From positions 4,769,709-4,833,708 of the forward strand of contig CAJINV010000002.1 in the NCBI GenBank assembly GCA_905178155.1: a stretch of 64,000 nt of DNA, written 5' to 3'. Positions 1,466-64,000 of the stretch are shown in pieces. The translations under genes were made by a program, and so were the position numbers. How positions within the stretch are numbered: the first letter of the stretch is position 1; every line of letters begins with the position of its first letter. This DNA is from Amoebophrya sp. A120. Lineage: Eukaryota > Protista > Dinoflagellata. A model generated the notes under the pieces. That model was not told the DNA's origin and did no database searches. It saw only the letters and a list, made by a program, of their open reading frames with translations.

Positions 1466-3454
1466 TTATCGAATGCAAATATGTCTGGGTCTGGAAGAAT
1501 GCGAGACTTGTCATGCTTGTCTGGCATGACCAAAAAGTTTGTGATGCGTGTCCAAGAAGAGACCCTTTTGCTTGTCATGCAAAACCGCAGTCTGTCATGC
1601 GAAAAACGTAGCACAAAGAAGCGCAGATATTTCTCATGCTTGCCTGTGCATTACAGAGCACTCATTATTCCCCCAGCGCAGCATTACAAGTTTCCAGACC
1701 CAGACATTTTTGCAACCCATACGTTTCTTTCTAAAACCAAAGGCTTCCACCCTTCCGTGTCGGCCATGAGCTTTTCGTTGTAATCCATATGGCGTTCTCA
1801 ATTGTTACATTCTCAACTGTTACATGATTTGTCATGCAGAATCGCCTTGACTATGAACGCCACCAAGCTGCTTCGCATGGCAAATTCTCAGACGGCCAAA
1901 CAGGCTGAGAATCTGTGCCAAATCTATCATGCACGACGCGCAAGGTCCTTCCTTTCACTTTTGCTACTCTTGCATTACAAATCTGTGTAACAGTTGAGGA
2001 TGTAACAGTTGAGAACGCCATAATCCATGACTTCTACTTTGACCACGTCTACCAGAATGTCGCACCGCGCTTGGTCCAAGGGTACAATCACCGCGACGCC
2101 CTTCGCGACGATCCACCCGCCTTTCCCCTTTTGGTCCTCCCACGTGACCGAAACCTTGTTGCTGTTGTTGGTGATTTCCTGCACCTTGCGCGTGTTGGTC
2201 CGCGTGTTCAGCTTTATGCTGGTGAAATCGTTGGAGATCCCCCGCGGGACGACGAGTCTTCAGTAATGGAGGGAAAAAAAAAATCTAGCGAGTGTGAAGT
2301 AGAGCGGGAGGAGACGATGAAATGTTGTTTCTCTTTCGTTTCTATCTGCACGACTTTATTCTGGAGGACATACGGCGTCCCTACAACAAGTTCTACTCAT
2401 ACACGTCAACAGTGATCCTACTGCGAGAACAACCATTCTCTCCGGGTAGCAAGGGTAATATCACGTGCTCCTGCAACTGGGACTGTTCCTGTTTTCACTG
2501 ATACTTGTTCAAGGAAGAAGTAGTACAAATCCAAGCACATCTTCTTCTGCAAGAACGCATTCAATACAAAGACGAAAGAGTATTTGTGTTCCTCACACTC
2601 ACAACCGTACGACGCAAGAAGATCTTGCAGTTTGGATACGAGCTCGGGAAGGCGTTTTCGTCCAAGGTGATCAGCGAGACCGGGTGAATGCCGTTTTTTC
2701 CGTTGTCATCGTGATAAGGTATTCGGTCGATCACCTTGAACATGCGCCGGATGATCTCGTCGATGTTGGTAATCATGTCGCTATCTTGCACTTGAATATC
2801 GTGTTTTTCCTTGTTTTTACCTAATTGAAGAACAATCTCGTGGTCGTGGTCCTTTTCATCCGAGGTATATGACGATGGGAAAAAATCAGGTGCAGCAGCC
2901 GGACCGACGACGTCCACCTGAATTTCTACTTCGGCAGAAGAGGGAACCGGAACGTCCAGAGTCGTCGCAGGAACTGCTTGGGCTTGTGCAGCTGCTTCTT
3001 CCCCTTTCAAGAGAAACAGTTCTTCTGCCTCTTCAAGGGCGCCAGATGCCTCGACGCCCGTTATTTGCTGGCTAAACGAAAAACGCAGCTGCGAAAGCAG
3101 ATTCAGATTCAAGAGAATAAAGAGCGTTAGTAGTGCTGGTTGTTTCCTGCTCCCGCTTGCCAACGTCTTGACTACAGCAAACCAACGCGGGTTATAATGT
3201 TGCGCGACAGAGCAAAACGCCGCCGTGGTACAGGCACAGCAGGCGTTGCTGGACGAGGTGTTGATAGCCAGGGTCTTTTCCTGTACTTGCGGCATCGACA
3301 GACAAGAGCTAAAAATCACTAGAGTTGTTTTTCCTGGACACCATCTGCAGCCACAGTGTGAAAGCAAATCATCGCAGCTGCAAGCGTTGAAACAGGGTGG
3401 TGATAGAATTGGGTATTTACTTCTGGCTCTCAATCGGAATCCATGTAGTGGCAT
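1466..3454 (-). CDS. Pyridoxamine 5'-phosphate oxidase-like / general stress protein 26-like FMN-binding split-barrel protein, multi-exon
   Basis: ORF 2561-3454 joins via a GT-AG intron (2258-2639) and the introner at 1788-2022 to give VSLITLDENAFPSS-LVVPRG-NDFTSIKLNTRTNTRKVQEI-KVSVTWED-GWIVAKGVAVIV-VEVMDYNEKLMADTEGWKPLVLER. This fits the PNPOx-like pattern (LxTxdxxGxP, TxxxTRKVxEI, VsvxW). Start codon uncertain; the last exon depends on the 1475-1713 intron boundary (stop at 1466 or 1450). Confidence 0.65.
1475..1713. mobile_element. Introner/MITE family A, copy 1
   Basis: TIR gcaaatatgtctgggtctggaa / ttccagacccagacatttttgc; flanks aat/aac (alternative DR tgcaa); internal TGTNATGC motifs. 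Confidence 0.9.
1788..2022. mobile_element. Introner family B, copy 1 (235 bp)
   Basis: TIR of about 37 bp, tatggcgttctcaa...ttgagaacgccata; perfect TSD atcca; removing 240 nt joins VEVMDY to NEKLM in frame. Confidence 0.93.
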
Positions 3455-4284
3455 TTACCAAAAACAAAACTTCAAAAAACGTTTTACCAGCGAGGGGAAG
3501 GGTTCTACAAATTGGGATCGATCGCGGTTGACTGCAAAAAGAAAAATTGCAGCGAGACCAGGTAGGAGACGTCAATGGAAAACGCGATTCCAAGAACATG
3601 AGCATGACCAACATCTGAGGATCTAGATCTGTTGTTGTGAAAAAGGTACTCTCACTCTTGCCTGTTTCTCGTGATGGGAAATAGGACCGATCTTGCTCTC
3701 GAGGAGATCATATTGCGCGGTGCTGTTCCTTTAGGATCATCCACACAGAATGGATACTTGCCAGTACAACCTCTTCGCATGCAAACTGGTGTCTACAACA
3801 GTTGAAACTGCAGCTCGTAGAACTTGAAGTAAAAACCGATCTGTTGGTGGCCGAAACCAAACAATGTTCTTGAAAAGGACCCCTAGCTCCAGAGGAGTAC
3901 TACCTTAGGAACGGAGCACTAGACTCAGACTCCGATACCAGGAAATCTGAATCATACCCGCGGTAAGAATCTTCTTTCGCTCTTATACATCAAAAACCTC
4001 GTTGCGCGGGCAGCCTTGCCCCTGTGGGAAGAATAAAGGCGTAATCTTTGCAAAAAAATGTTGTAGTCAATCTTGTTGACGACACACATCGAGCTTTGTT
4101 CACAGTGTATATTGAGGCTACTTCTACTTCGGAGAAGTACTACTGTACTGACTCTACTTTGCGTGAAAAATGACTTTCGGATAGCTTCTTGCATTCAGGA
4201 TTTTTGATTTCCATTTCCTATGATTCCAAGTCCTACTGGAGGAACCCTTACCTGTCAAACTGACTAGAATTTCAAGCAATCGCA

Positions 4285-7214
4285 TCATGATTTAGATGGG
4301 TTGGCTCTTTGCATAGTGTACGATCTTTCACTCTTTTTCTTTGTTCTCCTTGCATGCAAAGAGGATCTCTTTACAGTATCTTTTCTCATAGTCCACGTCC
4401 ACCTACAGGAGCATGATTTGAAGTTACAGTTTCGCACGGTACTATCATTGAAGCACGACGCCGGTCCTTGCTGCTTCACTTCGCCCGCGTCGCGGAGCTG
4501 GCCCGTCGTCGCAGGTTATTATTCCCCTTGTTTTTTCCTGCACCGCTGCCGCCCTTCGCCGGATGTATCGTCTGCTTGACTTCCGCCAGGGTTACCAGCT
4601 GCTCGCGGATTTTGTTCTCCAACTTTTTCGCGAACTGGTATGCCTCGTGGATCTCGATACGATATGCAACAGAGTGAATCAGACGCAACAGATATCTAGT
4701 CTATCTCGGTGATACAGATTTTTCTCGTTTTGCAGTAAAACGTAGAAAAACAACATACTAATACGATACGTTCAAGAAGGCTCCATGAGGATCATCCACG
4801 ACAAGAGCGCGTTTCTACTACAAGACCGGCTGCCACCAAAAGGAAAAAAGACTAGAGCCATCCTCAACATCGACTGGTTCTTGCGTCTGCTCTTTTATTT
4901 GCAACCCATGCCATATCTTACGCGCCCGCTCCGTTTCTACCGGCAGCCAACACGGGTTTTCTTTCTTCGGCTTGTCGCCCGGGGCAGCGGAAAACCTGTC
5001 GATTGATTGTGTGTTCCTTTGCAGTCTTGTTTAGACAGCCGATTCATAAATTCCTAGAAACGGACAAAACTGCAAACGCAAGGTCAATCTCAATGCGTGT
5101 GGACGACGACGAGTTGTACAAACTACAGAAGTATATTAAAAATACCGTCGCTTCTTGGCTTTCCTGGCCTTCAGCTTTTCCGCGGGACTGTTCGGATCCG
5201 GTTTGGCAAACGGGTCGCGCTGCTCCTCGTACCGGGACTTGAGGGCCTTATACCGTTTGTCCAGAATTGTCAGGGTAATGTGCTCCATTTCGGTCTCGTT
5301 GGCCAACTTCACGCAGTAGACCGCGAGCCGGTTCCGCTCAACCTGCTCCGAGCTAAACTGCACACGGTAGCTGATGCCCAGCTTCAGTTCGCGCGCCCAC
5401 TGGTTCATCTCGGAAAGCTGTAGTTTTTTGCGACCGTAATCTGTATTCTCTTGAGCCAGATATTAATTGATCTGTAGCTGTGCAAAAAATTGTCCATACT
5501 CTATTGCTCCTGGCAAGAACTCGCTCAGGAAAGTAACAGGGACACACGTTGCTGGTGAGTGAGGGCGAATCGAAATGAGACAAGACAACCAGAAGAAGTA
5601 GTTGTGACCACATCCACAACTTCTACAGCTCCGTCCGTTCGTCCTTGTGGTTGCGCATTGGTGTTGACGCAACATTTTAAAGATCGGTTGGAAAAATTCG
5701 CCGGACATCTATCAACAGCTTCTTCGTAATCGTACCTTGATCAGGATGTGGTACTCCAACTCTTTCACTTTCAACTGCATCAGTTTGTTCTCCTCTTTTT
5801 CCTTCTCCTCGCGCGTTTTCCGCTGCTCAATCAGGTGCTGCCGTGCGGATTTGGGCCGCCCCTCTGCACTACGTGGCCGCTTGCTCCCGGCCTCTTTCGC
5901 TTCGGCCTGATGGAAAGAAGATCAAAAATAGTATCATATCAATTCTATTCTACCTGCAACACAGAAACACATAGTTCATGTTGCACATGAAGGCCATGCA
6001 GAGCGATGTAAAAGTAAACTGATGCATGCCCGATTGAAACCCAGGTCCTTTCTTTTTGATGTTTTTTAGCAATCGATCCTACCAAAAAAAGACTAAAAAG
6101 AGTCCATGAAGATCAAGCACCGCCAACATCAAGCAAGTCAAAGTCATGCAAGGCACACCACATATGAGAATCGAAATCTGTACCATCCGCTCGGCCCGCG
6201 CCTTGACTTCCTCGAAGCCCGTTTCTCCCAAGGAGTGCCCGGCGGCCGTCTTTGGTCGCAGCGATTTGTTGCTCCTGTCTCCAGCACCTCCGCCTCCACC
6301 ACCCAACCCGCTGCTACTCGCGGAGTGCTTGAAGAGCTGGCCAAACAGCAGTATGGCGTTCTCAACTGTTACATTCTCAACTGTTACATGGACTTGTGAT
6401 GCAAGAATGGGAAAAGTGAAAGGGGGGGCATTACGCGTCTTGCATGACAGATTTGGCAGAGATTATCATCCTGTTTGGCCCTTCCAGGATTTGTCATGCA
6501 GAGCAGCTTGATCGTGTAGATGATCATGGTGCTTTTGCATGACAAATCATGTAACAGTTGAGAATGTAACATTTGAGAACGCCATAAGCAGCGGCGCCGC
6601 GTTCGAACTGGCCCGGGAGTCCGCGGTCCCAAGCTCGCTCTGCATGGAGAGCCGGTTTTTGTGCTGCGACGACGTTTTTGATGAACTTTGCCCCCGTGGT
6701 CTGCTGCTCGTGGTCGTGTATGCAAGAGAAGGGCAAATACTTGTTCATAGCTGGGTCGATGCATTCGCCAAACTGGATGGGGAGAAACCACTTGGAGGAC
6801 CACCAGTCCCAGTGGGATCGTGTGCCCACGCATGAAAAGTGGTGGGAATGACCGAATGTATTATATACTCATCGAATTCGTCCCTTTGGTCGTCCTCTAC
6901 CTGTATACCGTAAACACATTTTTCGTGAAGCAGCAACACAAAGCGTCTTCAGTAAGCTTGACCGCCTCTACTGATCCCTCCAGACAATGACAATGTTGTA
7001 TTTGCACTCGATACTCTGGTCCTCGGGCTGCCCGACGCGCCCGCGTTTTCTCCGAAGTAATCATCATCGTCCTCGCTTGCACTATGGATCGCAAAAGTCG
7101 TTGTGTGCGTGTTTCCGTTTCGCATTCGGATTCGCACGTACAACTTGCATGACAAATTATTGAAAATGCAATTCGCCAGGTTGAAGTGCTTCTACTAAAT
7201 TTACTTAAGATCAT
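4285..7214 (-). CDS. Multi-exon hypothetical coiled-coil protein (boundaries approximate)
   Basis: In-frame joins across the introners at 6719-6907 and 6352-6586 and a GT-AG intron near 5907-6183 (RAERM/AEAKEAG). Further exons at ORFs 5136-5408 and 4476-4688; some junctions unresolved. Confidence 0.5.
6352..6586. mobile_element. Introner family B, copy 2 (235 bp), inverted relative to copy 1
   Basis: TIR tatggcg(ttctcaactgttaca)x2; perfect TSD agcag; interior is the reverse complement of 1788-2022; removal gives NAAPLLFGQLF. Confidence 0.93.
6719..6907. mobile_element. Degenerate TAT...ATA introner
   Basis: Ends tatgcaagag / cctgtata; flanks tcgtg/ccgta; removing 194 nt restores frame (NVFT-ATSSRP) and removes an in-frame TGA. 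Confidence 0.55.
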
Positions 7215-7785
7215 TCAATGTTCCGGTACTGCGGCATCTTGTGCGGACAGACACGGCACGAGTTTCGCACAGGATACGCACTTGCAGAAGAAGCCATTGC
7301 GTTTCCGCCTTCGGCTATGGACAAGGAAGAAAGTTGTTTCACTGTATCGAAAGTTAGCCACTTCGTGCCACGTATTTGCAAGGAGGATTTCAGTTTTCTT
7401 TACAAAGAAACCACTCCAGCACTCCGTGGATGAAATTGCAGAACTTCTGACTTATTCTCTTTGTTTGTCGTCCAAAAGAATTGAACCTCTCCTACCAAAT
7501 GCGGAAAGCTCGTCGTCACAGTGAAAAGACTTCTTCCCTCTTCTTGTGCGATATCCGTGTAGTATTTGAAGTGGTTGTTTCCCATCTTGAAGTACTTCTT
7601 TATTGCGGGAAAAAACTTTAAGTGCGTCAGTGAATAAAAAATTGCGGTGCGATGCAACCAAAAGATCAACTCTCTCTAGCTTGTCATTTACCGGAACTGC
7701 AGACCACGTAGTCAAAAACTGAGTACTGCTACTGCACCACAAGTTCTGCCATGCAAATTTCCACGACTAACGCACGTGTAAATAT

Positions 7786-10700
7786 TTATTTTTCCCAGTG
7801 CATACTGTTCTGGTCGTAGGCACTGTTTTCCGGGAGCAGCGAGAAGGCGCTGCGGCCAAAGGCGGAAGACGTGGAGACCAAAGACTGCTGGTGCTGCGCG
7901 GCGGGATTCAATTTAATACCACTGTTCCTCGCGCCGCTCGGAAATATTTCAGCGGCTCCCTGCGGTCCCTTGTTAGTCGGATCGACCTCCGCTGATGTGT
8001 CCCTCTCGTTGAGACCCGTAGCTGCCGATGAAGTTCTTGCACTACCAGGTCCTCCTGCCGAGGAGGACCCGAAGCCTCCGAAGGTCGCACTGAGCGGCGG
8101 CCGGGTCCGCGGGCGGGCGGAGGCGGCAGCGGTTGACGGCAGGTGGCTGTTGTTCATGCTGAAGGTCAGGGCGTGCGAGTTCTTCTGGAAAAACAGGCTT
8201 GTCTTGTGGCTGCTGCCCGAGGACGAGGAGGACGAGAGTCGCTGGTTGATGGAGGTGTCCGGTTTTTGATTCGTCCCTTTGCTGCATGCATTGCAAAAAC
8301 AACACCGTCTACGTGCAGTAGTACGCAGAGGACGCAACAGCTGCTTCTACACCTAGCTACGAGCTACTGTAGAAATGTGTACTACGCAAAAGAATCAAAC
8401 AAACGCTTTGTGATGAAGAATGGTCGCGCGTCCGAAAGTGGTAGGTGTCGTGCCAGGGCGGGGAGGTACGGGAATCGGAATCGCCTTCGCCATCGTCGTT
8501 TGTTACTGTCAGATAAGTACAAACAGGAAACAGTCACTACGCAGGTCATGCTGTTCCTCTCTACTAGTATCGCTTCGTTCTACTTACACGTACACGGCGC
8601 ATGGACAAGGAGATCACATTTTCTTCCCAGGATAACATGTTGACACTCGTAGCTCCACCACTTGCTCCCTTTCGGGGTGTGTTCGTCGTCGATCCGGGCT
8701 TAGAGGAGCTCGCGCTACCTCCCCGGCTCCCCGTACTAGTCGGGCGCCCGCCGCCGAACAAGGCCCGCAGTTCGGGCCGAATAGCGTCAGTTCCGGATTT
8801 GTACTCCGGTGGGGTGGGACCTGCTTCTCCTGCAGTTGTTCTTGTTTTTGCATCTGTCTCCATCACTGGCGCACCCGTTCTTGTCGTTTCAGTGCTGTCC
8901 TTGACGCCGCTACTTAAAAATTCCGCCCGACCCCCCGAGGCCCGCGAAGATCCACCGCTGCCGGGACGGCTGCCCGGCCGACTGTTGCTCCGCGCGGAGG
9001 AAGTAGCGTTCTTCCCCTGCTGCTGCTTCGAAGTGCCGCTCGCTCCGCTTCTGGCTGAAAAAGGCTGAGAGGGTTTCCCTTCCGTGATCAGTTCCTGGTT
9101 GAAGATTAAAGTCGACAGGCCACTGCGTGCTCCTCCTCCGCCACCGCTGCCCGAGGCAGCAGTTCCGGCGACATCCTCTGGTGCTCCACCTCGAGAGCCA
9201 GCCGCTGTAACTGGTGGGTCTACGACTTGCGACGACCCGGAAAGTAGATGAGCGTCCCCTTTCAAGAAATCCGCAGCTTTCGTCAGAGACGGTTTGCGAG
9301 AATTTATCGTAAAGAAAAATCCCCCCTCCCCATATTGAAAACGCATCCGTCTGAAAATTTGTGATGCGCATTTGTGACCTCAAATCTTGTCTGTCTTGCA
9401 AGAAGGGAAGTCCAGAGAGCCCCCTGCATTTTGCAGGCGGTTTGTGATGCTGTTGGGCTTAGAGCATACACGTTTGTCATGCTAGGCGCCTACGTCAAAA
9501 CCTCTCGGCCGAGGCTTGACATATGCCCGCAGTCCTCTACTGCAAGACAAATCTGATTCGTGTACGGAAATCCAGCATCAGAAACTTCGTTTCGATATGG
9601 GGAGGGGGAATTTTTCCTCTTGATAGAATTCGCCCGGGAACCAGTTGCACTGGATGAGGTAGACGTAGCACCGCTGGTCGCGCCTAACAGATCGCGGATC
9701 ACATTGTTTCTATTTGTTGAAACACTGATGTCCGAGGTGGCGGGTTCCTTTTGATGCTGCGACAACACGGGTCTTTGTTGTTCCGGCTCCGCTTCAGCTT
9801 CATGATCAACTGCAGCAGGTGGCCGTGACGTTGCAGCAGCTGGAGCGGTCTTTCCGGTTTCATGATCTTGCAGAAGCGGAGATTTACCTTCATCTTCCGC
9901 AAGTCTGTTCGGTCCGCTGTTCGCACCTGAGGAGGATGTGCATGCACCAGCGGGAACTCCTTGTTCTACCTGGTTTTCTTCTCTCATCTCTCCCTTCTGC
10001 AACTCGCGCATGAGCCGCTCGGGCTCGAACGGAACGGGCTTGCTCGGATCGCGGGGTGACCGATTCGCTGTCGCAGTGACGGCCGCGACATGAAGATCTT
10101 CTTTTGTGGATCTTCCAATCCCCCGCCGTGTTTGCTCCCCTGCACTAGCGTTCGAAACTTCTAGAGGTTGTTGTGGATTGAAAATTTCCTCTTCGATCTC
10201 ATCCAACTGCTGCTCCGGCTGGAGCGTGTTGCAGCTTCTCCCCCCGCTCGGCGTAGCATTTGCTCCGCCCGGAAATTGGTGCGACGCGAGCTGGCCTTTA
10301 CCGCCCGTGGCAACGCCGGTATTCGGGGTACTCGAGCCCGAAGAGAGTGCGGAACCAGGTGCGCCGCCACCGCTCGCTCCAAAGGCCGTGACACGGTGCG
10401 CCATCTTCCCCGCCAGTTCGGTGATTGTCGTGCCGGCTTGGCTTATGAAAGCGCGCAACTCCCTGTCATTTGTGATGCAAGCTGCCGAATATTCCAGACC
10501 ATGACTTGCACTTGCCTTGAAGCACTTTACTTTGCATGCCAGTTTGTGGAATCCCAAGCATTACTGCAATCCGTCGTGGACTAACTTGTCATGCGGAACA
10601 AGCTACATGTGTGGCATAGCTTCTGCTGGTGCTCATGCCCTTCAAGTGACTGTGTGGGAGAGCTCGAGTTGTGCAAGCTCATATGGCTGCTACCGACCGT

Positions 10701-10935
10701 CGAGAGCATTTCCACCGCGTTCGCTTCATTCTGGTTTGTCGATGAAGAGAGCTCCGAGGTGAGATCAGAGGTTTGTTGCGGATAGCCCCCGGCTCCGTTT
10801 GGTAGAATCGCGCCAGGATTGCCTGGGGTAGTTGCTGCGGTCGTGGTGGTTCCCGCTACTTCGCTATGAGAGTGGAAAAAGCTCTTGCCGGAAAATGCGT
10901 TTCGATTTCGATTTTTTGCGCCAGTACGTAACTCT
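7786..10935 (-). CDS. Multi-exon Ser/Gly/Thr-rich low-complexity protein (5' end uncertain)
   Basis: ORFs 9490-10557, 8564-9346 and 7786-8337 linked by introners at 10444-10683 (GSSQ/AGTT) and 9305-9625 (RANS/RKPS); intron near 8290-8634 not exactly resolved. Confidence 0.7.
9305..9625. mobile_element. Introner family C, copy 1 (321 bp)
   Basis: TIR tatcgtaaagaaaaatcccccctccccatat / atatggggagggggaatttttcctcttgata; perfect TSD gaatt; removing 326 nt corrects the frameshift between the two long ORFs. Confidence 0.92.
10444..10683. mobile_element. TAT...ATA introner (240 bp)
   Basis: Imperfect TIR tatgaaagcgcgcaactc / gagttgtgcaagctcata; perfect TSD tggct; removing 245 nt is in frame. Confidence 0.85.
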
Positions 10936-12253
10936 TAATCTGGTCCTGGTGTCCTGCGCGTAATTATATGGACAATTGAAACAAACACACAAGGACTCGG
11001 GGCTGTTGAGTATGACCACTTGGCTTCACGAATATATTTATGAACATGATACAAACACAATTCTGATACTAGTAAGTAAGCTTTTCCCCTCTGTTACGCC
11101 CGGTTGGTGGCCAGCCCCGCTGCGCGGTCTGCGGCGTTCCGCAGAGCTTGGGAAACATTGGACGTGATGAGACAGAAAAAAGCTAGCATGTGACGTTTCA
11201 TCTTCGCATGCACGAACTGATCGAGTGAATGTGTGTGCTCTTGCGCAGGGCTGGTATTTTTGCCTCAAAAAAGCAAGAGCTACACAAGGGGCGGGCGGAG
11301 TACCAACCTGTTCCCGTCGAAATCAAGATTTTTGATTCTGTGTCTCTCTTGAAATATGGCATGCTAGACAATTTTCTTGTGCGATAGAGGTGGATCTAAG
11401 CTCGGTTGTAGAACTACTTGAAACCGCACTGCTCGCTGCTGCGTAGGGTATCTGTAGTGACAGATCAGGAGTTCAACTCGTGTGCTGCTGCGCTTGCGTT
11501 ACAGAATCGAATTTGCGTCGCGGCACGCTACTTCATTACACATTCACATGTACATGTGCAACCATTATCACCCAAAATAAACGAAAGCAAGCCCCTACTG
11601 TCAATCCTTCTATACCCGGCCCTCGAGCTGATTGCTCTCCGGCCTGCCACGATGAGACTCCGGCCTCCCCCGGTGCGACTCTGGTCGGCCGCGGTGCGAT
11701 TCCGGCCGCCCCCGTGGATTTGAAGAGTCCGGGCGGGTGTCAAGTGCAAATCATATCATGTCTGGAAACTTGCAGGCATCAGTCACCGGTTACCCACCAC
11801 TTTGTTTGATGTTGATCACGATCTGTCATGCATATAAACCGCCTACGACGTGAAGCATTTGCTTTGCCAGGGGACGCTTCATTCATTAAGGTTGAAGCTC
11901 ACTTTTGCCGTCAATAGAAGTACGTCTCCATTGAATCAGTCTCCTGAAAAAAGGTAGCAGGAGAGCCAGCCCCATCCTAACTGCAATTCGTATTTTTCGG
12001 AGTTTCTCGTTTTCCAGATCTCCCAGACATCTAATTTGCACTGCGTAGCGAGTACTGTGGTGCGACTCCGGGCGGCTGAGGGCGGAAATCGGCCGCTGAG
12101 ACATTTCCTGTTGGTGCTTCTCATACCTGACAGAATGTTAAAAATTAAGTATCGTTTTGTCATGCGGGACAGGCACGGTGAAGCCATGCTTCTATCTCTA
12201 TGCGAAATACAGCATGAGGAATAACCATAATTACGCTTCGCTGATTTTCCCTT

Positions 12254-21033: not shown

Positions 21034-21077
21034 TCTCTCTCTTTCTCTCTCTCTCTCTCTCTCGCTCTCTCTCTCTC
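21034..21077. repeat. (TC)n microsatellite
   Basis: Imperfect tctctc run of about 44 nt. Confidence 0.95.
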
Positions 21078-35600: not shown

Positions 35601-37417
35601 CCTTTTTCAGCTGCTGCTGCAGCAATTCCAACTGCTTCTCCAGCTGGATGCGGTCGTGCTTCTCCCTGTTCAGCTCGTTCTTGAACCGTTCCGACTCGAA
35701 CTGCAGCTCCGTCCTTGACAAAATTTTGACCCGCGCCGGCGCCCGCGCTTTCTGGTCGTTCTCCTTCAGCACCGCGTCGAGCAACTTCTTCTGCTCGCCG
35801 TTCGTACTGTAGTCCCCCGCAATTTTCTTCAACAGCCCCCCGATAATCGCGTCCTGCTTCCCCAGCTCCTCCTGCAACTGCTTGATCACGTTTGTCCGCT
35901 TGTGCTCTTGCGAGGACTTCTTCAGCTCCAGATTCTCCTTCTTCAACTTGTCCACACTCGTCATCAGTGCCCGCACCTTGCTGTTCGCCAGTTTCTGCAC
36001 CGCGGCGACCTGCTCGGGTATCGGCTTGCCAGCGTTCCCATCCACCTGGTTTTGGAAGAGCAAGCCGCATCAAGCGGAAACATCCCCCCTCCCCATACTG
36101 AAAGGGCACGGCTCTAAAAATTTGTGATGCTGATTCGTGGGCACAAATCCTGTCTCTCTTGCAAGAGGGCAAATTCAGAGACTCCGCCACGATATGCAGG
36201 CAATTTGTAATGCTGCAAGGCCTATAGGGCTGACGTCTGCCATGCTAGGTCCCTACACCAAGAGGCCCCCCCTCTGGCGTACGATCTGCGTGCAGTCCTT
36301 TACTGCAAGACAAATGTGATTTGTGTACTCAAATACAGCAACACACATGTGGTTTTCGATATGGGGAGGGGGGATTTTTCCTTTTGATAAGCCGCGCTTC
36401 TTGTTCTCGACGGTGGGGGAGTTGGTGGTCGACTCGATGTGAAGAAAGGGGAGTTGATCCACGATTATCGAGGGAAAAAATAACTGTATATGTATCTATA
36501 AGTGTAAGTTTCTTGGAGGAACAGCACACAAGTTTCTGCATGACACAGAAAACTTGTCATGCATAGCTAGTATGTGAAAACACGCACGAAAAAGAAAATT
36601 GCCTCTGAGTCTGATGCATGTCCAGCATGACAAGTGAAACAGTTTTGCAGTTTCTGCAACACAAATTTACACTTACACAGTTTTTTTCTTGGATAACGGT
36701 GGACTTACGGTTAGTGTTGACGTTTTGCGGCAGGATCGTCGGGCGGATTTGGGATTGCTGCTCTGAAGGTGGGGGAGGAAAAAGTACTCCTGGGGCTCCT
36801 ACTTGCTGCTGCGGACCGGAGGGCAATCCCATGATCCCCTGTCCGGGTGCTGGTGCGGCCGGCGCGGATGACATTGTTGTGTATGCAGGTGGGCCAGGAA
36901 CCGAAGAACTCGGACCTGTTGATGTAATCGGCGCTAGATTCACGGGTGGTACCTGGGCGGCCGCGCCCGCGCCGCCGAGTTGTGTGTCTCTACTACTGGC
37001 ACCATTTTGTTGGCCTGCAGGTCCCTGCGCTGCAGCCGCAGTGCTGCTACCTCCGCCCATGACAGGGCGTGGGGTCGTCGTGCGTGGCGCATCCGGGGGT
37101 CGCGGGGTCGCACCAGAAGATACCGCGCCGGGTTGTTGCACGGACGGATAGGACGAGAATTGGCTTGATGATGTTCCAAGAACTCCTGCTTGCGGAGTAT
37201 TATACGCAGGTCCACCTCCCGTGGCTTTCGCGGACGCCGGGGCAGGCGACGTGGCTGCCGCAGAATACGGGTTGGTCGCCGTCGTGCTGGCCGCCGGAGC
37301 AGAGGGATAATTAGAAACTACACCTTGCTGCGAGGCACTAGAGGCTGCTGTAGCCGCCACGGGATTGATTCCCAAAAGCTGGTCAAGCAAGTTCGGTCCC
37401 TCTTCAGAAGGCGCCAT
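32616..37417 (-). CDS. Large coiled-coil protein with Pro/Ala-rich termini, about 9 exons
   Basis: In-frame junctions STV/DQL, KRGL/LFQ, SQML/EQQ, ELE/LKL, LHS/EEE, DMS/REA (GT-AG 34329-34594) and DA/ELED; one intron near 33920-34097 unresolved. Confidence 0.8.
33360..33697. mobile_element. TATC...GATA introner (338 bp)
   Basis: TIR tatcaagagggaa / ttccctgtttgata; flanking DR ccgg; frame requires removal of 343 nt (element plus 5). Confidence 0.75.
34779..35046. mobile_element. TATC...GATA introner (268 bp), degenerate
   Basis: Ends tatccggggg / ccaaggata; flanks tcgga/tccga; removing 273 nt is in frame. Confidence 0.75.
35153..35329. mobile_element. Foldback introner (177 bp)
   Basis: IR of about 65 nt (agaaaaaagctggcagg...atttgtaatgcaaaaataaatacaca and its reverse complement); perfect TSD ctcga; in-frame join. 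Confidence 0.92.
35422..35577. mobile_element. Introner family E (156 bp)
   Basis: TIR tatgcattgcaaaagtatcgtact / agtacgatacttttgcagtggata; perfect TSD cagca; in-frame join. Confidence 0.92.
36068..36389. mobile_element. Introner family C, copy 2 (322 bp)
   Basis: Collinear homolog of 9305-9625; TSD agccg; removing 327 nt is in frame. Confidence 0.92.
36466..36695. mobile_element. TATC...GATA introner (230 bp)
   Basis: TIR tatcgagggaaaaaataactgt / acagttttttttcttggata; flanks acgat/acggt; removing 235 nt fixes the frame. Confidence 0.85.
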
Positions 37418-38198: not shown

Positions 38199-40729
38199 TT
38201 ACACACTTCTCGCATCCCCCTCCTCGTCGTCCTCCGCATCGCCGTTCTTTGCGCTAATCGACAGGTCACTCTCCTTGCTTCGTTTTCTTTTATCAAATGT
38301 AAAAATGTCTGGGTCTGGAAGAATCCGAAATTTGTATATGCTGTTTTATTTGCATGACACAGAATGTCGGTCATAGAAGCCCTAGCATCACAGATTTTTA
38401 GAGGCCTACCTTCCTGATGCCTATTCCGCATGACGAATGCCCTCCACGCGTAGCACAAACCGGACTCCTCTTGCTGGTCATGCAATACAGATTTTTTAGA
38501 GTCCAAAGTTAGCAGCACAAGTTCCAACCCTCCAGACCCAGACACTTTTGCAATCCATATCTGTCCAGCAAGAGCATTTTCTGTTTCGAAAACGACCGGT
38601 TGTTGACGAGGTTATTAAGTTGACTGCTGTTCAACGTAGGAGACGTACTACCTTGCTGCAATCCTGTTGCAAGACTATTCAGATTTGGTGTAGTTCCGGT
38701 GATAGCACTTTTAGCTGCCCCGTGCTGGTTTTGCAAAAGGAGATTCGTCCCAGCGGCCACTCCCACCGCGTTGCTGGTGCTGCTGCTGTTGGTTTCCTCC
38801 AGACAATCGGGAGAGGCGAGCAACGGCTCCTTGCCGACCTCTTTCTTCAAGGCGTCGAGCACCGAGGTTGGTGGTGATGCTGGGGAAGATTTGGTTGGGC
38901 CAGCAATGGTTCCAGTAGAAGTTTTTTCCTGCAGAACTTCAAGTTCCGCGGACTTTTTCACCACCCACTCCTCCAATTTCAAGCGGTACTGAATCAGCCA
39001 GGTAAGCGCCTTGTCCTGCTCGCTCGTAATCTCCGCCATGGCTGACATCTCCTTCATTACATCGGCTAGCCGCCTCTGAAGCGATTGCGTCAACTCTTCG
39101 CCATCCACACTATGCAGTGCAAAAACATGCTGTACAGCACGTACTGGTACTGAAATGGTATTGCATGTCGAACAAGAGGACAAATTCTTTTTTCATGTTG
39201 AAGCAGATTCAGTTCGTAGTAAAAGAGCAGATCCCCCATGCGCATCATGCCAAAATAGACTGCACTTCTACTTCATGTACGAGTACAATGAACTTTTGTA
39301 CACATTGGATACAAACCCTGATGCAGTAAATCGTCACGTTCCTGCTGGATTTTTTCGAGCTTCTCGCTCATGTGTTTGAATTCCACATCAAACTGGTGCT
39401 GAATCTTCTGCTTGAAAACGTGCAACTTCGCCACCTCTTGGTTGTAGTAGTGAATCTGTTTGTCCAGCTGTTTATTCTGCTGTTCCTGAAACAATAGCTG
39501 CTGTTGATGTTGCGACGGATTTGCCAGGCTGGCCGACGAGCCAGGAACTACACCTGGCGCAGCAGCAGTCGTTGACCCGCCACCTTGGAGGTGCAGCTGG
39601 GCGGTCGTTGCAGTAGTTGTACCACTCTGGTGGTGATGCAACGAAGAGGAGGTTTCCCGCTGTAAGAAATTTGTGCTATCCCCCGGTGCTGGTCCCGGCG
39701 CGGTAGTGCTGTTTGTTTCGTCGATGGAGGTCTTTGCAGTCGTCGTGCCGCTTTTCGACGTGGTGGTGTGAATGCTGGGCTTGTGCGAAGAGCCGTTCGA
39801 GGAGGTCGTGTGGACAAGGCCCCCGTGGTCAACAACTAGTACACGGTCACCACAACCACCGGTTGCTGTTGCAGCACCCCCACTAGAAGTAGAAACCAGG
39901 CCAGCATTTGCTCCGGATGACCAGGACGAGGTTAGCAAATTTGGGAGCTTTGCTCCTGATGCGGAGGTGGAATTATTCACGGAGCTGGTGGTCGTGTACA
40001 CGTGGGACGGCGCGCCGCGGGAGGGACTGGTAGTAGAGGCTGGGGTGGGTTGGATAATTCCAGTCGAAGTGCTACGAAATGCAAAAATGTCTGGGTCTGG
40101 AAGATTCCAACTTGTCATGCTAAATCTCAATCATGCAAAAATCTGTGTTGCATAATTCCCAAAAGCTCTCCACTTTCGACCAAGTTGGGAGGAAGTTTCT
40201 CATGCAGGATACGCATGGCAGAGACCTCACAGAGTCTGTCACGCGAAGTCCCGCATTTCGGACCTCATGGGTCATGGAAAACCTGCATGACAAGTTTACA
40301 CCCTTCCAGACCCAGACATTTTTACAGTTGATAAGTGCAACTCGAAGACGAAATCGACGTTTTCGGGGACGCTGCTGCCGCGAGCACCGCAGATTGGGAA
40401 GCGGAAGTGGCCGGCCCAGCAGCAGGGTGGGCAGCTGAATAAAAGTTGAGGTTCCCTCCTCCCGATGATGCGGGTAAAACTGATACAACTCCAGCTCCTG
40501 CTTGCTGCTGCAAGGACGCGGAGACAACAACGCCAGATGATCCAACAGAAGGTCCTACCGCCGTGCCGGTTGATGTGGGAGTGGTGATAGAAGTAGAACA
40601 AATGCCACTCACTTTATTGGAAGCTGCGCCACTCGCACCAGCCGCAGCGGGCGACGTGGGAAGGAGGCTGTTCACTGCAGCGCTGCGCAGACTGGCCGAG
40701 GCAGAGACATGATGCGGAGAATGCTCCAT
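38199..40729 (-). CDS. Ser/Thr-rich protein with central coiled coil, 4 exons
   Basis: ORFs 40322-40729, 39273-40130 and 38509-39183 plus last exon (FDKRKRSKE...ARSV*) are joined in frame by three introners. Confidence 0.8.
38299..38551. mobile_element. Introner family A, copy 2
   Basis: TIR gtaaaaatgtctgggtctgga / tccagacccagacacttttgc; TSD aat; removing 256 nt gives RYG/FDKRK. Confidence 0.92.
39111..39311. mobile_element. Introner family E-like (201 bp)
   Basis: Ends tatgcagtgcaaaa / ttttgtacacattggata; flanks cacac/caaac; removing 206 nt fixes the frame (QGL/DGEE). Confidence 0.8.
40081..40325. mobile_element. Introner family A, copy 3
   Basis: TIR gcaaaaatgtctgggtctggaag / cttccagacccagacatttttac; flanks aat/agt; removing 248 nt fixes the frame (TYQL/RSTST). 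Confidence 0.92.
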
Positions 40730-41968: not shown

Positions 41969-43905
41969 TCAAACTGCACAAATAGTAACGCCTTTTAAAT
42001 CCAAACCGCACATCAAACAAGTTGTACCCGCTGCCTCCATTTTGGGTTGATTTTTCTGCAGCGTGAAACTGATGCACTCGCTCGCTCGGCGTTTTCCCGC
42101 GGAGGGCGCGAGCGTGGTCTGGTCATAGATGTAGAGGTCCTTGTTGGACGGTGGCGCTTTGTAACTCCCGAGGTTGGTAGCCGTGGCCTCACTGCTCGTG
42201 GTCATCATGTGCGCTGACTTTCGGCTAAACCAGTGCTCGGTCGCAGCTTCGTGCCTAATGCATTTACGTCGTGATGGTTGTCAATTGAGTGTTTTATTCT
42301 TATATTGGCTTTTTGATTTTGTTCAACACGCGACCCCACCATCACAACTAGTACCTCATGAGGATAAGCAAGTACTTCATTTCCAAGTATCGCCTTTCTA
42401 TAAAAAGCGTAAGCGAGCTACTGTCTGTCAGTTGGTTATAGGAAAAAAAAACTTCCTAGCCAGTACGCGTTGTCCCTTTTCACCAGCCTTTCCTCGTGTG
42501 CGACGGAGGTTCGCGGATTTTTTCGCGGGACTTTTACGGAACTTCGGGCAGCCGACATCTCCTTCACCATGTTCGAGACCTCCTTCAACTTTGGCACCTC
42601 CTCCTCCACAAAAAGGCACTTCTTCCCACCGAACTCCTCCTGGGTGCCAATGTAGTCGTGATTCAATTTCTCTTGTTTCGCCGGAGAGGATACCTGATTT
42701 TCATTTTCGATCTTCTTGTTGGTGTCTACGCAACACAAATTTTAGCTCTTTGATTGTTCCGGCGGCGCAGTGAAGAACCCAAAGTTGCGTCTTACTTTGT
42801 TTCCAGACCAACAAGACCACGAATCAATATTTGCAAAAAGGAAAATCAAAATGCATAGTGTAAAAAATAGAAATACGATTTTGATCCCCTCTCTTGGGTT
42901 GAAGAACTCCTTGCCCTGCGGCACCGCTCTGCCACTGTGGTGATCTTTGCCCGTGTCCAGATCTGGGTTCGCCCGGTGTCGGGGGCTCAGCTTCGGAGCA
43001 GCCACCAGATCGGCACGAACCGCCCGGTGCTGCTGTCTCGGACTGGAGTAGGCCATCCAGTTTGCGGACCCGCGAAACGTAGGGGAGGAGCGGGCGGAGG
43101 TGTTGAATTTCCCCGATTGATGTTTCAAAGACCGTGTTGTAGTTCCTGTGGTAGAGGTGATGTCCCCATTTCTGCCGGTTGTTGCGTTCGTCGCAGTCGT
43201 GGAGTCGCCTTGCTGTTCCGGAAAATATGCATTGCAAAATCATCGATTTTTCAGTCGGAATTGCAACGTTCCTTCTTTCAGAAGGATAAACAGAATTCAT
43301 GCGTGTGCCATGCTGATTAAGGGTAGAAAAATATAAATAACCAGATTTGTTATGGTGCAGATCAGCTGGAGCTGCAATTCCAATTAGCACGACCACGATA
43401 ATGTTTTTACTGTTGCCCCGGATAGAAGAAATACCGCACAGTCGCTGCCCAAGTGGTCCTGATACACCGAGGACCCGGTGGGGACGCCGGCGGCGGGAGT
43501 GGCTTGATTTTCTTCTTGCCGAGAACCTAGGCTAGATGACGGGAGGAGCTGGGGCGGGTTGTTCGAGAGAACAACAGTCTGCGGTTTTTGGGGTACACCA
43601 GCGGCAGCACTCACACTCTGCGTTGCGGATCCTAGGTCTACAAAGTGGTCCTGCTGCTCCTTCATCTTCGCCGCCGTGGTTCTGTGGCTTGTGTGCGATT
43701 TCTCCTCGATGCTTCGTCGTGCAAATCGGTTGTTGGGCCGCGGCGACTGTGCGAGGAAGTTCGCAGATAACAATTCCGGGGTGGATCGGAGTACGCTTGC
43801 AGCCCCCGTTGTGTAAGAGGTAGACGACCCCGTTATGTCTACTTGTCGTGACTGTAACCGCGGTGACTGGTAGGAGGCACTGTAGGAGGTCACCCGGGGC
43901 TTCAT
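41969..43905 (-). CDS. Multi-exon hypothetical protein (3' exons approximate)
   Basis: ORF 43384-43905 is joined in frame via introner 43226-43424 (VFL/PEQQG) to the frame of ORF 42742-43128; further ORFs 42436-42738 and 41969-42208. Confidence 0.55.
43226..43424. mobile_element. Introner family E-like (199 bp)
   Basis: Left end tatgcattgcaaaa is identical to the 35422 element; right end ccggata; flanks gaaaa/gaaga; removing 204 nt is in frame. Confidence 0.75.
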
Positions 43906-44150: not shown

Positions 44151-45093
44151 TCATAGATAGTACCTGCCATCCCCTCGTTTCCCCCCGACATGCTTCCCGT
44201 CACCACCGCGTTGACCCTGCCCGCCGGTTCGAATTTCATTTTCCTCTCCTCGTACCGGACCGGGTTGGCCGCGGGCGCGGGGCTGTTTCCCGCACAGCTT
44301 CGCCAAAACTTGGCGCTGAACCTTTCGAACCGTGTATCCTGTGTAAAAGCATCCCCACCACAGAGTTGTCATGCAGATCTGCAAGCGCAAGAGCATTTGT
44401 AATGCGCATCCCCATGATAGGCATTTCCGATCGTGTTTTGGAACTTGTAATGCTGTAAACAGGATAGGCAGATGGATTTGTAATGCGACTTCCCTTTCTA
44501 AACTGCACTACACTACAGCTAGGAATTTGTCATGCGTGGCTCCCAAATAAACTTCAAGGTTTGTGTTGCAAAATCCCCATCTTGACTCTGGGGTGGGGAC
44601 GTTTTTCATTAGGATACCGTGCGTGATCCGCGTCATTCTTCGCGACGTGGCTCCTGTCGTGCGTGTGCCCGCCGCGGAGGTGCACCGGTTGGTCGTGCTC
44701 CACAGGACCACGCGGGGAGGCTGCAGAGGATGAACCCGCAGCGTTGCTAAACCCTCCGCGACTGCCCCGGGCAGCGGCAATTTTTGCCAAGTTGTGGTCG
44801 TGTTTGAACCAACTGCTCGCGGAGCCTGCTAACTGCTGCTGCCCCGAGGAGCGCTTCACCTTCGCAGTGACGGTGGAGTTTAAGTTGTACAGCCCCCCGG
44901 ATCCGATCGCCTGGGTGGAATGGTGGTGCTCGTTGGCCGCGTTGCGCACGCCCGTAGAGTGCAGCTTGCAGGTGTCCTTGGAAGACACGTGGGTGCCGCG
45001 CTGGTTGCTGGTGTGCATGTTCACATCGGTGGCCACGCGAAGCCCCTGGTTGTGAATGTCACCTAGGTGACTGCCGCGGGATATCTTGTCCAT
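44151..45093 (-). CDS. Hypothetical protein, at least 2 exons
   Basis: ATG at 45093; removing introner 44335-44616 gives ADHAR/FERFSAKFW...GNEGMAG; 3' end uncertain. Confidence 0.65.
44335..44616. mobile_element. Introner family D (282 bp)
   Basis: TIR tatcctgtgtaaaagcatccccaccacagagt / actctggggtggggacgtttttcattaggata; perfect TSD ccgtg; six co-oriented TTGTNATGC-like motifs. Confidence 0.92.
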
Positions 45094-60700: not shown

Positions 60701-63700
60701 GAACCTATACGGGCGCGCCTTGAGGCTGAGCCCCGATAGGTTCCTGCAGTGCGTCACCATGGTCAATCTGTGCGTGACGCGGGTCGCGGTCGAAGCGCCA
60801 AGCTTCGTGAAAATGGTGCTATCCGCAGGTCCGTAGAAGGTCTCGATGGAATAGTCGGTCGTGGCGTCCACGTTCGCAATTTGCCGCTCCAGCCTCTCTT
60901 CGTGGGACAGCAGCGTGTGTCCACCGTGGTCTTCTTCCCCCGACGTATAATCGAGTAAATTCCGGGGGAGCGGCCAGTCGGAAACTGCGTATGCGTTGAA
61001 AGCAACGTCTTTCCTTTCCTCCAGCTCCGCGGCGGAGAGGGCGGAAAACTCCTCGAAAACTTCTTTTTTCAGCTCATTTTTGCGGAACAGCGCGAACCAA
61101 TCCCGGATCGCCCCGAAGTGCTCCGAGTACACCTCGGCGAGCATCTGGATCGCCTTCATCAGCCCGTTCGTGCGCAAGGCGTCGCGGTCCACCAGATAGC
61201 CCCCGGACGCCAGCGCCAGCAAAACCGGATCCTTCATCGCCATACGTTCCATGTTGGTGTGCAGTTTGAGTGCGACTTCTTTCCGGTGCTGTCTCTGCAT
61301 GCGGTCTTTCCGTGCTTCCTCATCCTCGTCGTACAAATGTTCTCCGGGCTCGACTTTTCTGACGTCCTGGGAGTACTTTGTTCTGTGGTGCGATTGTTTC
61401 GGAGCAGTTTCTTTTCCCGCGCGGCAAGTAGGAGGGTCAGCATTGTCATCATAAACATCCCGCCAACCTCTTGAAGCCTCTTTCTCTACTCCCGCTGGCG
61501 AAGGATGTTCCTCACCTCCACGTTCCAGTGAATCAAGTAACTCCTTGCGCCTCGCGCACAGCGCCTTTTCGCTTTCGAGCAATTCCTTTGGCTTCGCGCT
61601 GCACGACAGGTCGTTTTTGCTGCCGTCCTTCCTATGCTCAATGTAACGAAGGGTCTCGCCATCGGAGCTCACGTCGACCGTAAACTCTTTTCCAAATCTG
61701 CTCTGAGCCACAGCTTTCAAGGCCTCTTTAACGTCCACTTTCGGCGTAGTGCCAGCGGTGCCGTGTTGCAGCACCTCGGACAGAGGGCACTGAAATTCCA
61801 TTCCGCACGGTGTCCAGCCAGTCTCTCCGGTGGCGGCCGCGAGCTCCTTTCTGTCCTGAGCGATGACATCGCGGTCCACCTTATTCGTCATGACAGGCGG
61901 GGCGGGAGCACCATCGGAAGAACAAACTTTGGCGTCCCAGGTGGCTTTTAGGTTTTTTAGCAAGTTTTCCCTTTCCTGATTCACATGCTCTTCGTGGTTT
62001 TTCTTTCCACCCGGTAGGAGCTGGTCCACCGCACAGGCCCCTTCCATGATCTTCTTCATGAATTCTTCCTCTGTGTACTCAACGAAAGGACCACCCGCAT
62101 CTTGTTCCAGCGGACCATCTTGCGCAGTCCCGCTCGCAGTCGTGCCTTTCTGACTGCTCCGGGAGCTGCACGTAGCCTTCGCCTTCGCGGCTCCACCTCT
62201 ACAAGAACTTGATCTCTTCTTCCGCGCGCTACAAGAAGCAGAACTAGTACTGCCACGACCTGCTCTTTGTAACACCGCTGGTAAATCTCCTTCGCTGCGG
62301 TGAATCTGTTTTTCCCACTCTTTGTCCTTCCGCTGCATCTCCACAGACTTGCCCTCGTTCGTGGGGGGCAGTTGCTTTTTCACAAACTCCGTCTTCATCC
62401 GGTCAGCTTCGGCTGCAGCGCACTGAGCCATCGCCGCCAGGCCCTCCAGTGTGTCTTCTTCGCTCGAAGATGAAGAAGAACTGCCACTTTCGTCTTCGTC
62501 CTCCGAGGATGAACAGGAGTCAACCGAACGAAAAACAGAATGCTTGTCACCAAATTTCGCAGCATCGTGAGAAGGAGAACCACCACAAGATATTGAATTC
62601 TCCTTCTCCTTAGACCCACTGACTATCTTCGACACGGCGGACGATAACACCTCCCTGGACGCGACATTTAAGCCCTCTGTAATCCCGTTCGCCAGCTCAA
62701 TCTCCGCGTCTGCTTGATCCACGTCCATGCTCGTATCCTGGTCTTGCAGTCCTGCCACTGGTGTAAGTGCGGTGCTAGTTCTTGTGCCACGACGGCCACA
62801 CAAAGTTTGAAAGTTTTCTGTGCTTATGATCGTTGTATCGACTCCACCTGGAAGAACAGAAGTTGTGTTGAGCGGCATGGTCGGGGAAATCTGAACCATT
62901 CCGAATGACCCAGGTTTTTGATTTTGCTCCGCGTCGCTTGGACTACATTTTTGTCCTGTCGAAGATGCTGGCACAAGAACATCCGCAGAGGCAGACGCAG
63001 AAGAACAGTCCCTGTCTCTTACATTATCTGCATCAGCATCGACGATAGTACTGCTCCCTCCCGCTAATGTTCCTTTCAAGCGCGCTGGCGGGGACGGCGG
63101 CGCATAGTCGGGCGGAGGGGGTACTACATCAAGGGTGCTTTTTTCTCTCGACGCTGGTTCAGCAGGAGGAGTAGGCTCACCTCCGAGACAGTCCAAATCC
63201 GCGGGTTTCAGGTCTTCCTTCCCTTTGATCACAATCTTGCAAGATGAGTCGGAAGTAGGAATAACGGGAACAACCTGCTGCTCCTTTTCCTTATCATCAC
63301 ACGGCTTTGATGTCGCAGTATTGCTCATCTCAACGTCATGACCTTGATCGACGTCTTGCACCTCTTCATCCCCAGTCGTAGCACAATATTTTTCTGCCGC
63401 ACTCAGCATCGCTGTAATGTGTTCCTTTTCTTCCTCGGTCATTTTATCCTTGCTAAGAACGAAGTTGCTAGCCGCGAGAAAGTCGAAATTTCGGACCATA
63501 AACTGCCGCTGGGCGTAGGACAGGTATTCCACCCGCTTCTTCGCGCTGAGAAGAAACCACCTCGTCTCTTCATCCTTGTTTTCCCACGTTTTGTCGTCGA
63601 AAAGAAGCCCCCCAACTTCGCCAGGAGCCCGGCACCACATCTCGAGCAGCTGCGCTCGCGGGTCCTCGCCGGACGAGCAAGAACCGCCATTTTCATATGG

Positions 63701-64000
63701 ATTGCAAAAATGTCTGGGTCTGGAAACATGTCATGCGAAAAGTGAATAGGAGACGCACTGCAATTGCAATACGCAGCTATGCATGACAAATTTTTTGGCT
63801 CCCATGTTCTACGTATTCCGCATGCCATGGCAAACTGCGTTGTTGCATGACAGGTAAGCGGGCCTCTTCGTGCCTATGCAACACAGATTCTCGAATCATG
63901 CCAGACAAGCATGACAAACTTGCAGTCTTCCAGACCCAGACATTTTTGGATTTGATATTTCAACCGCACCGACAATCCTGTCCATCCGCTTTTTGTCCTC
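48748..64000 (-). CDS. Giant protein (about 4,930 codons in window, 5'-truncated) with a Pol-beta-type non-canonical poly(A)/poly(U) polymerase domain, PAP-associated domain and PAM2 motif
   Basis: The 3856-aa and 1048-aa ORFs and the window-edge exon join in frame via introners 60322-60530 and 63704-63949. Motifs: PKGS-x11-DLDL, FTIDMS, IILAKRWYKER-TGLNSISIAFLVLYTL, IGVLFYEFL, FFLIDPD (about 50820-51915) and LNPAAAEFQP (about 50031-50066). Confidence 0.85.
60322..60530. mobile_element. TATC...GATA introner (209 bp)
   Basis: TIR tatccaagagaaaaa / ttttttcttggata; flanks actgg/cccgg; removing 214 nt fuses the two giant ORFs in frame. Confidence 0.85.
63704..63949. mobile_element. Introner family A, copy 4, inverted relative to copy 1
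   Basis: TIR gcaaaaatgtctgggtctggaa / cttccagacccagacatttttgg; TSD att (DR extends to tggatt); contains an in-frame TGA; removing 249 nt gives EISNP/YENGG. Confidence 0.92.

Follow-up and report, generated by a model that had tools for sequence, protein, structure and literature searches.

A paired, tip-phased 9-bp motif shared by introner families of Amoebophrya sp. A120 as a putative binding site for their mobilising machinery

In the present study, we analysed a 64-kb stretch of DNA from Amoebophrya sp. A120 (the window) that carries short elements with terminal inverted repeats (TIRs), which are likely, on the basis of their sequence, to be introners of the A120 type. The elements share a 9-bp word, TTGTNATGC, co-oriented copies of which tend to lie 31-33 bp apart and the first of which is phased to the tip of the element. 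We consider it probable that these elements represent one clade of non-autonomous TIR transposons sharing a phased putative binding site for the machinery that mobilises them. The paired sites make the question of how the introns of A120 move directly testable.

The window was compared with loci from one other assembly. A 20-bp end of family A, used as the query, retrieved 145 loci (590,550 non-redundant bases), all from that assembly, and two matches in a viral collection (L146 and L147) were excluded from all counts. No unique sequence common to the window and these loci was found; the second assembly shares families with the window, and the longest matches are 67-85% identical. Elements were searched for as TAT[CG] tips (at most one mismatch) with a TIR and a 5-bp target site duplication (TSD), which yielded 318 elements (308 from the loci of the second assembly and 10 from the window) and no false positives in 200 kb of simulated sequence. 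Apart from 12 singletons, they fell into 13 families of 2-146 members (306 elements), and family consensuses were built from all members or, for family A, from 60 of 146. The site matrix was derived from 71 consensus sites, and its scores were used to call sites.

The window holds 37 exact copies of TTGTNATGC (27 forward and 10 reverse), against an expectation of 2.1-3.2 under Markov models of order 1, 3, and 4 (maximum of 8 in 40 simulations each), and the enrichment over a composition-matched background that an earlier, sequence-only reading of the window had proposed was thereby confirmed. Its density is 11.2/kb within elements versus 0.10/kb outside them in the window and 8.6/kb versus 0.25/kb in the second assembly, an enrichment of 35-110-fold within elements. 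All 23 positions at which the earlier reading had placed the motif hold a site exactly there, 14 of them as exact TTGTNATGC or GCATNACAA and 9 as variants with scores of 8-20; the sites at 35190-35290 and 35490-35521, which had been listed together, are present, but belong to two different elements and families. The impression that the motif is rare in exons, including the long open reading frame (ORF), was borne out for the two long ORFs, with counts of 0 in the 11.6-kb ORF at 48748-60336 and 0 at 60494-63690. The matrix consensus is roughly AW-[T]YTGTVWTGCW. Within families, conservation is 0.93 at the motif core, whereas other internal positions reach 0.755 and the motif's free fifth base 0.70; nearest neighbours differ at 194 of 7394 core sites versus 3376 of 38747 other sites. 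We regard the motif as real, statistically strong, and functional in appearance. It may resemble a Sox-Oct composite site and the apicomplexan TGCATGCA, a likeness on which no conclusion here depends.

The sequence-only reading had also predicted a peak in co-oriented spacing at 31-33 bp, which was found: 17 of the 35 co-oriented distances of up to 70 bp in 15 window elements fall there, as do 21 of 35 (up to 70 bp) and 21 of 74 (up to 130 bp) in the consensuses. These 21 consensus pairs, at 31, 32, or 33 bp, are spread over 12 of the 13 families. The permutation null had a mean of 2.5 and a maximum of 9, none of 5000 permutations reached 21, and when the best 3-bp bin was taken anywhere the maximum in 3000 permutations was 12. 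The upstream site is the stronger in 19 of the 21 pairs, such that the pair unit comprises a strong site, A[T]TTGTVATGC, and, 31-33 bp downstream of it, a looser YTGTVWTGC, with a free spacer between them. No co-oriented consensus pairs occur at 20-22, 41-42, 52-53, or 62-64 bp; therefore, a general 10.5-bp ladder was rejected and the distance is a single fixed one. In individual copies, family A adds peaks at 20, 39 (off-phase), and 53-54 bp, while 328 of 810 distances are at 31-33. For 20 strong sites without a partner, 6 of 25 half-site hits lie 30-33 bp behind the strong site, which is suggestive.

A constant spacing may also be a relic, without function, of a single ancestral tandem repeat of 32 bp, and the tips and TSD shared by all families, together with 8 of 78 consensus pairs that are similar outside the motifs and TIRs, are in keeping with common descent of this kind. 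However, the alignment by which the earlier reading proposed to judge this explanation came out against it: identity is 0.33 between the spacers of pairs and only 0.28-0.33 between neighbouring 32-bp units, the sites form pairs, not runs, and first and second sites differ systematically. The core is conserved far above the spacer, and spacer length is maintained, whereas other intervals vary, as does the total length of the elements (109-350 bp); a length change of at least 2 bp affects 14 of 212 pair spacers versus 18 of 115 other intervals of 20-45 bp (p = 0.011). Since the spacing is fixed, the spacer free, the units unlike, and the upstream site stronger, the relic explanation is largely refuted, and we rate it as very improbable.

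Opposite-facing sites are in excess at 15-18 bp (13 vs 4.8 expected) and at 45-50 bp (14 vs 4.2), and pairs often interlock head-to-head with offsets of approximately 16 and 48 bp, which is the pattern expected if two pairs interlock with two-fold symmetry. The excess at 15-18 bp may instead reflect forward and reverse copies that pair with each other, folding RNA or single-stranded DNA to bring the ends together, and the predicted folds of 10 of the 13 consensuses contain two or more sites that pair with another site. However, copies need not pair, because all sites of family G (6) and of family 8 (2) point the same way, and G is spliced nonetheless; moreover, folding accounts for neither a fixed word across families nor the co-oriented spacing of 31-33 bp. 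We regard it as the least probable of the explanations considered.

The position of the first site relative to the tip provides a further regularity. Of the 433 ends that have an inward-facing site within 20-62 bp, 394 carry the first such site 32-34, 40-44, or 52-55 bp from the tip, a count dominated by family A. The 24 family-end modes gave R = 0.61 at a period of approximately 10 (p = 0.0002 against a uniform null and p = 0.0016 against an exponential null); these p-values are optimistic because the bands are loose and the families related. One end of family A has its first site at 33 (47 copies) or 42 (78 copies), and one end of family C at 44 (7 copies) or 55 (17 copies). Distances from the tip to the first site step by about one helical turn. 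Element length in whole turns gave no signal (R = 0.14-0.30).

When the ends were set by the TIR alone, 230 of 306 elements showed an exact 5-bp TSD and a further 44 matched at 4 of 5 positions, while an exact repeat of another length was found in 9 and one of 6 bp in none; the claim that TSD lengths differ among the families was not upheld. All 13 consensuses have TAT at both ends, AAAA occupies positions 11-14 of one or both ends in 9 of 13, and the inverted ends are approximately 30 bp long. At TIR positions 15-30, one family bears no relation to another (mean identity 0.34). Therefore, the description of the TIRs as unrelated holds for these inner positions, not for the TAT tips common to 13 of 13 families, and it is only in the inner TIR that the families are distinct. 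The left and right ends change together at positions 15-30 in four families (A, D, 3, and G; p ≤ 0.012), and end symmetry may matter more than sequence at the inner TIR. Positions 5-10 are mostly free to mismatch between the two ends of an element. The strongest of the internal similarities is that of family C with family 7, which share an internal body with motifs masked (z = 7.3) and have different inner TIRs; this suggests end swapping or fast concerted change of the inner TIR. By eye, the interiors of families B, 6, and 12 also resemble one another, a likeness that did not pass the masked test. The shared tips, TSD length, and some internal sequence imply that the families are not independent origins, and a common ancestor together with selection explains what they share. 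The elements are short, non-coding, and present in high copy number, with TIRs and a fixed TSD, as are MITEs (miniature inverted-repeat transposable elements).

Evidence for splicing came from RNA-type contigs of four runs of one sample, their RNA status being predicted. The joints listed between 33300 and 44800 (15 of 17) comprise six GT-AG introns and nine non-canonical introns, on the minus strand, and the latter start with TAT and end with ATA (or one-letter variants), followed by the 5-bp duplication. Six TIR elements in this region were joined across in 4/4 RNA-type contig sets, each with the loss of the element and 5 nt, and these joins were absent from the DNA-type contigs examined. 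Because the elements run from TAT to ATA at the TSD, their true ends lie approximately 14 bp outside the TIR cores of the earlier reading. Contig depth on elements reaches thousands-fold above background (run X1); raw RNA from 2026 (runs X9 and X10) gave partial matches only, in 3 and 2 of 30 region bins, and is thus uninformative on splicing here. The spliced non-canonical introns lose the element with exactly one copy of the 5-bp TSD, which restores the pre-insertion exon. The apparent splice dinucleotides are ambiguous because of the TSD repeat, and because of this ambiguity, splice sites and direct-repeat lengths may appear more varied in the literature than they are.

The motif itself may mark these introns for non-canonical splicing, read on RNA or co-transcriptionally, as the sequence-only reading had suggested among three candidates. 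It is confined to introns, conserved, and present in all six spliced elements with intact TIRs. However, three of the nine spliced non-canonical introns have no site at a score of at least 11 (best 10, 9, and <7), although their joints stand in the very contigs that also join neighbouring introns. Transcription strand was called for 70 of 78 loci, correctly at 8 of 8 Pfam-anchored loci, and the orientation of the motif relative to the transcript showed no bias (110:93 elements, 50 equal, p = 0.26; family A, 49:50). A site-level count over 24 loci leans towards one strand (236:186, p = 0.017, for sites that are non-independent), and families 3, G, 5, 6, 8, and 9 each lean to one orientation, none significantly alone. 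Helical phasing would also be unexpected for single-stranded RNA. Since splicing proceeds in introns without a site and strand bias is absent, a role as a splicing mark is disfavoured and, in our view, improbable.

Diverged predicted introns carry 1.9 sites (n = 17) versus 4.1 in intact ones (n = 110), the diverged class being partly defined by the loss of motif-bearing homology. A longer 3' U-run in old introns, hinted at by three window introns, was not supported in 17 diverged versus 110 intact introns (p = 0.28 and 0.25).

Among the three candidates of the earlier reading, namely, a shared transposase, a host chromatin factor, and a splicing mark, we favour a shared transposition protein. 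The earlier proposal of one protein reading paired sites on the same DNA face in all families, as double-stranded DNA, fits because the spacing is fixed with a free spacer, strand bias is absent, and the first site is phased to the tip. The elements would then be of the cut-and-paste type, with their TAT tips, inverted ends, and 5-bp duplication, and a protein whose two DNA-binding units are separated by three turns, or a pair of cooperating subunits, may load on the pairs and be kept to the helical face on which the cleavage site lies. Copies that keep the sequence, spacing, and phase would continue to spread, while spacers and inner TIRs would drift. After insertion, the host would splice out the element and one TSD copy by means of the ends, and the sites would likely decay. 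More weakly, the enzyme may be an integrase-like DDE transposase, because an A120 introner family (fam38) is listed with a 5-bp TSD, TA/TA termini, and integrase-like ORFs (PMC12130899).

A stronger form of this model is also conceivable: a single factor may read a strong-plus-weak pair three turns apart, in two-fold interlocked sets, and count whole turns to the TAT tip, thereby mobilising any sequence that carries the code, across thousands of families, with inner TIRs free to change as long as both ends match. We hold this form only tentatively. If true, an internal module in phase with the tip, and no longer the TIR, would confer the specificity of transposition, which would explain the invasion of introns without a transposase having been found.

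Several observations weigh against mobilisation through the shared site. The inner TIR is family-specific yet conserved within families (0.88), and the motif is not a copy of it, being absent from inner TIRs with a weak tip look-alike (score 8) in families A and D only; family-specific transposases with a separate shared factor could produce this arrangement. Family B has no full pair and shows only a convergent form at 46-48 bp. The phase bands are loose (40-44), and shared ancestry makes the p-values overstate independence. The first site faces outward at 5 of 26 consensus ends (families D, 3, G, and 8) and at both ends of family 9. Among 161 family A copies, site number fell only weakly with TIR decay (rho = -0.14, p = 0.08) and did not fall with TSD mismatches (p = 0.77). 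Transposase or integrase domains numbered 0 in 106 ORFs (19 from the window and 87 of the 187 long ORFs of the loci), which come from well under 1% of a genome, and no autonomous copy was found in approximately 650 kb. The authors of the A120 genome paper found no transposase in A120 and argued against general mobilisation by transposases (Farhat et al., 2021; PMC7789003). Furthermore, 81 of 148 site clusters outside recognised elements went unassigned, some with intact pairs.

These points bear on the main rival view that a host DNA-binding or chromatin protein reads the pairs, and that the elements exploit it as an architectural cofactor of transposition or for tolerance in genes while family-specific enzymes read the inner TIRs. 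Such a view accommodates inner TIRs that differ between families (0.34) and are conserved within them, a motif that lies outside the TIR, and the lack of a transposase in the scanned ORFs. Matrix sites outside recognised elements are still 6.7-fold enriched, with 18 of 45 co-oriented distances there at 31-34 bp, and some of these have no recognisable ends. However, 58 of the 148 outside clusters are diverged elements (25) or adjoin family homology (33), with 9 more at locus edges, tip phasing ties the site to cleavage geometry, the long ORFs are free of sites, and the shared tips and TSD point to one enzyme type. We consider a host factor to be rather unlikely. Intact pairs of 32-34 bp with decayed or unrecognisable ends (L005:2230, L045:4651, L047:485, L055:2397, L021:3383, and L005:427) may be either old introns or a hint of host-level conservation. 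One strong site (42730) lies within a GT-AG intron of the window (42690-42872), possibly an old introner that has acquired canonical ends. Searches for long TIRs returned one 1104-bp TAT...ATA element (L016:505-1608) and otherwise pairs of neighbouring copies; this element, with a 5-bp TSD, its first site at 42, a repetitive interior, and no Pfam hit, appears to represent a longer family of the same architecture.

Comparisons with known systems are made here against excerpts of the cited papers. Approximately 30,000 repeated introns account for 17% of the A120 assembly, and the present elements resemble them in being non-canonical introns with inverted ends and direct repeats in co-oriented genes, at a mean of approximately 240 nt (Farhat et al., 2021; PMC7789003). 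Removal from RNA outside the GT-AG rule, TAT-type ends, and dispersed families with direct repeats all recur here. The ends reported for A120, TAT followed by 7 variable nt and at least 3 A, fit our elements, the detection of which itself required TAT[CG] with at most one mismatch, and the family lengths of 109, 150, 209, 255-262, 280, 307, and 321 match A120 rows of PMC12130899. The excerpts of PMC7789003 describe only the ends, with no internal shared motif, spacing, or phasing, and give direct repeats of a variable 3-5 nt in 1954 families, whereas the duplication is 5 bp here once the tip is taken as TAT. Family 38, a Ginger-like family (Gozashti et al., 2025; PMC12130899), is an intron-making TIR element with the same TSD length and TA/TA termini, but is approximately 810 bp long with ORFs similar to a Copia/Gypsy integrase-like protein.

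Outside introners, subterminal repeats in Emigrant/Lemi1 (PMC1636448), piggyBat/piggyBac (PMC11707139), and Tn7-type TnsB systems (PMC9371665) are likewise short repeated sites in both orientations whose arrangement matters for the protein-DNA complex; the subterminal motifs of MITEs are bound by transposases in an arrangement-dependent manner (PMC1636448), and TnsB also makes a 5-bp target site (PMC9371665). The elements studied here similarly have a multi-copy short motif inside the ends that is conserved above its surroundings. In the systems described in these excerpts, the repeats are family-specific, whereas here one word is common to 13 families whose inner TIRs differ, occurs throughout the element, and has one fixed pair distance and a tip phase. 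Emigrant and Sleeping Beauty repeats copy part of the TIR; those here do not, which counts against a binding site for the transposase. IS3EU and GingerRoot elements (PMC10045372, PMC6839031) share the TA...TA termini and carry an integrase-related DDE transposase, no domain of which was found in the ORFs scanned here; they differ in having a 6-bp TSD as a rule, with GingerRoot TIRs of 100-150 bp versus approximately 30 bp here.

Introners and subterminal binding repeats are thus known kinds, whereas the fixed geometry across families was not found in the literature examined. The internal word, 31-33-bp pairing, and tip phase do not appear in the available parts of PMC7789003, PMC12130899, PMC9860276, PMC11282704, and PMC11453091, the figures and external introner FASTA files of which may show the motif. 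The motif string does not occur in one supplement file of Farhat et al. or in the first 12 of the 14 files of Gozashti et al. (2025), and a literature search for it gave only primer-type noise among the matches listed (best 25 of 1408).

Many nominal families collapse into one clade once they are seen to share a site of fixed spacing and tip phase. Two jobs of the elements are also separated, the ends serving for splicing and the internal pairs likely for moving. The pair, approximately 45 bp long, is a possible bait for the mobilising protein and a signature for an autonomous parent in the full genome. The elements and introns of the window are listed in Table 1.

Table 1. Elements and spliced introns of the window (F and R, forward and reverse sites; pairs, co-oriented sites; joint, RNA-type contig joint).
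Feature	Positions	Strand	TSD	Sites and joints
Family A element	1467..1721		CGTTT	F1508, 1539, 1572, 1592, 1631; R1648, 1681; pairs 31, 33, 33
Family B element	1788..2022		ATCCA	F1829, 1924; R1875, 1972; 31-33 pair absent; convergent spacing 46-48; tip to first site 42/43
Family B element	6352..6586		AGCAG	F6394, 6491; R6442, 6537; first sites 43/42 from tips
Diverged element, boundaries predicted	7083..7276		4 of 5	one site, R7147
Family C element	9305..9625		GAATT	pairs 9359/9391, 9442/9474, 9542/9575; first sites 55/43 from tips
Diverged family 6 member	10444..10683		TGGCT	F10470, 10586
Diverged family G element	29271..29519		4 of 5	F29313, 29412, 29449; RNA contig piece ends 29265
Spliced TAT...ATA intron without site	33356..33698	-		best score 9 (none >=11); joint 33355-33699, 4/4 RNA-type runs
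Spliced TAT...ATA intron without site	34774..35046	-		no site at score >=7
Family E element, spliced	35153..35329	-	CTCGA	pairs 35190/35221, 35259/35290; joint 35147-35330, 182 nt = 177 + 5 (one TSD copy)
Family D element, spliced	35422..35577	-	CAGCA	pair 35490/35521, R35456; end-proximal sites outward-facing; joint 35416-35578
Family C element, spliced	36068..36389	-	AGCCG	pair 36122/36154, F36205 (weak partner 36237), R36305; joint 36061-36389
Family 3 element, spliced	36466..36695	-	4 of 5	pair R36625/36656; R36538 and F36554 16 apart; joint 36460-36696
Family A element, spliced	38291..38559	-	4 of 5	pairs 38352/38385, 38482/38512; joint 38285-38560
Family A element	40073..40333		AGTGC	pair 40112/40143, F40197, 40236, R40285; RNA contig pieces stop at 40066, joint not among the 15 of 17 listed
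Spliced TAT...ATA intron without site	43221..43424	-		best score 10 (none >=11); remnant family D-like end
Family G element, spliced	44335..44616	-	CCGTG	six sites, one orientation, pairs 44366/44397, 44445/44478, 44527/44561; joint 44328-44616
Family A element	63696..63957		TTTCA	R63781, 63845, 63878, 63909 (33, 31), F63728; first sites 33/41 from tips

Confident coding calls fall on the minus strand in every case (123 of 123 intervals of 150 bp), and the genes form one co-oriented block. Two minus-strand frames of 3862 aa (48748-60336) and 1078 aa (60494-63730) have no introns and no Pfam hits in intron-dense surroundings, and the former, 11.6 kb long, is free of introner insertions. In the second assembly, a C-5 cytosine DNA methylase domain is split over two adjacent ORFs (L013:2625-6080).

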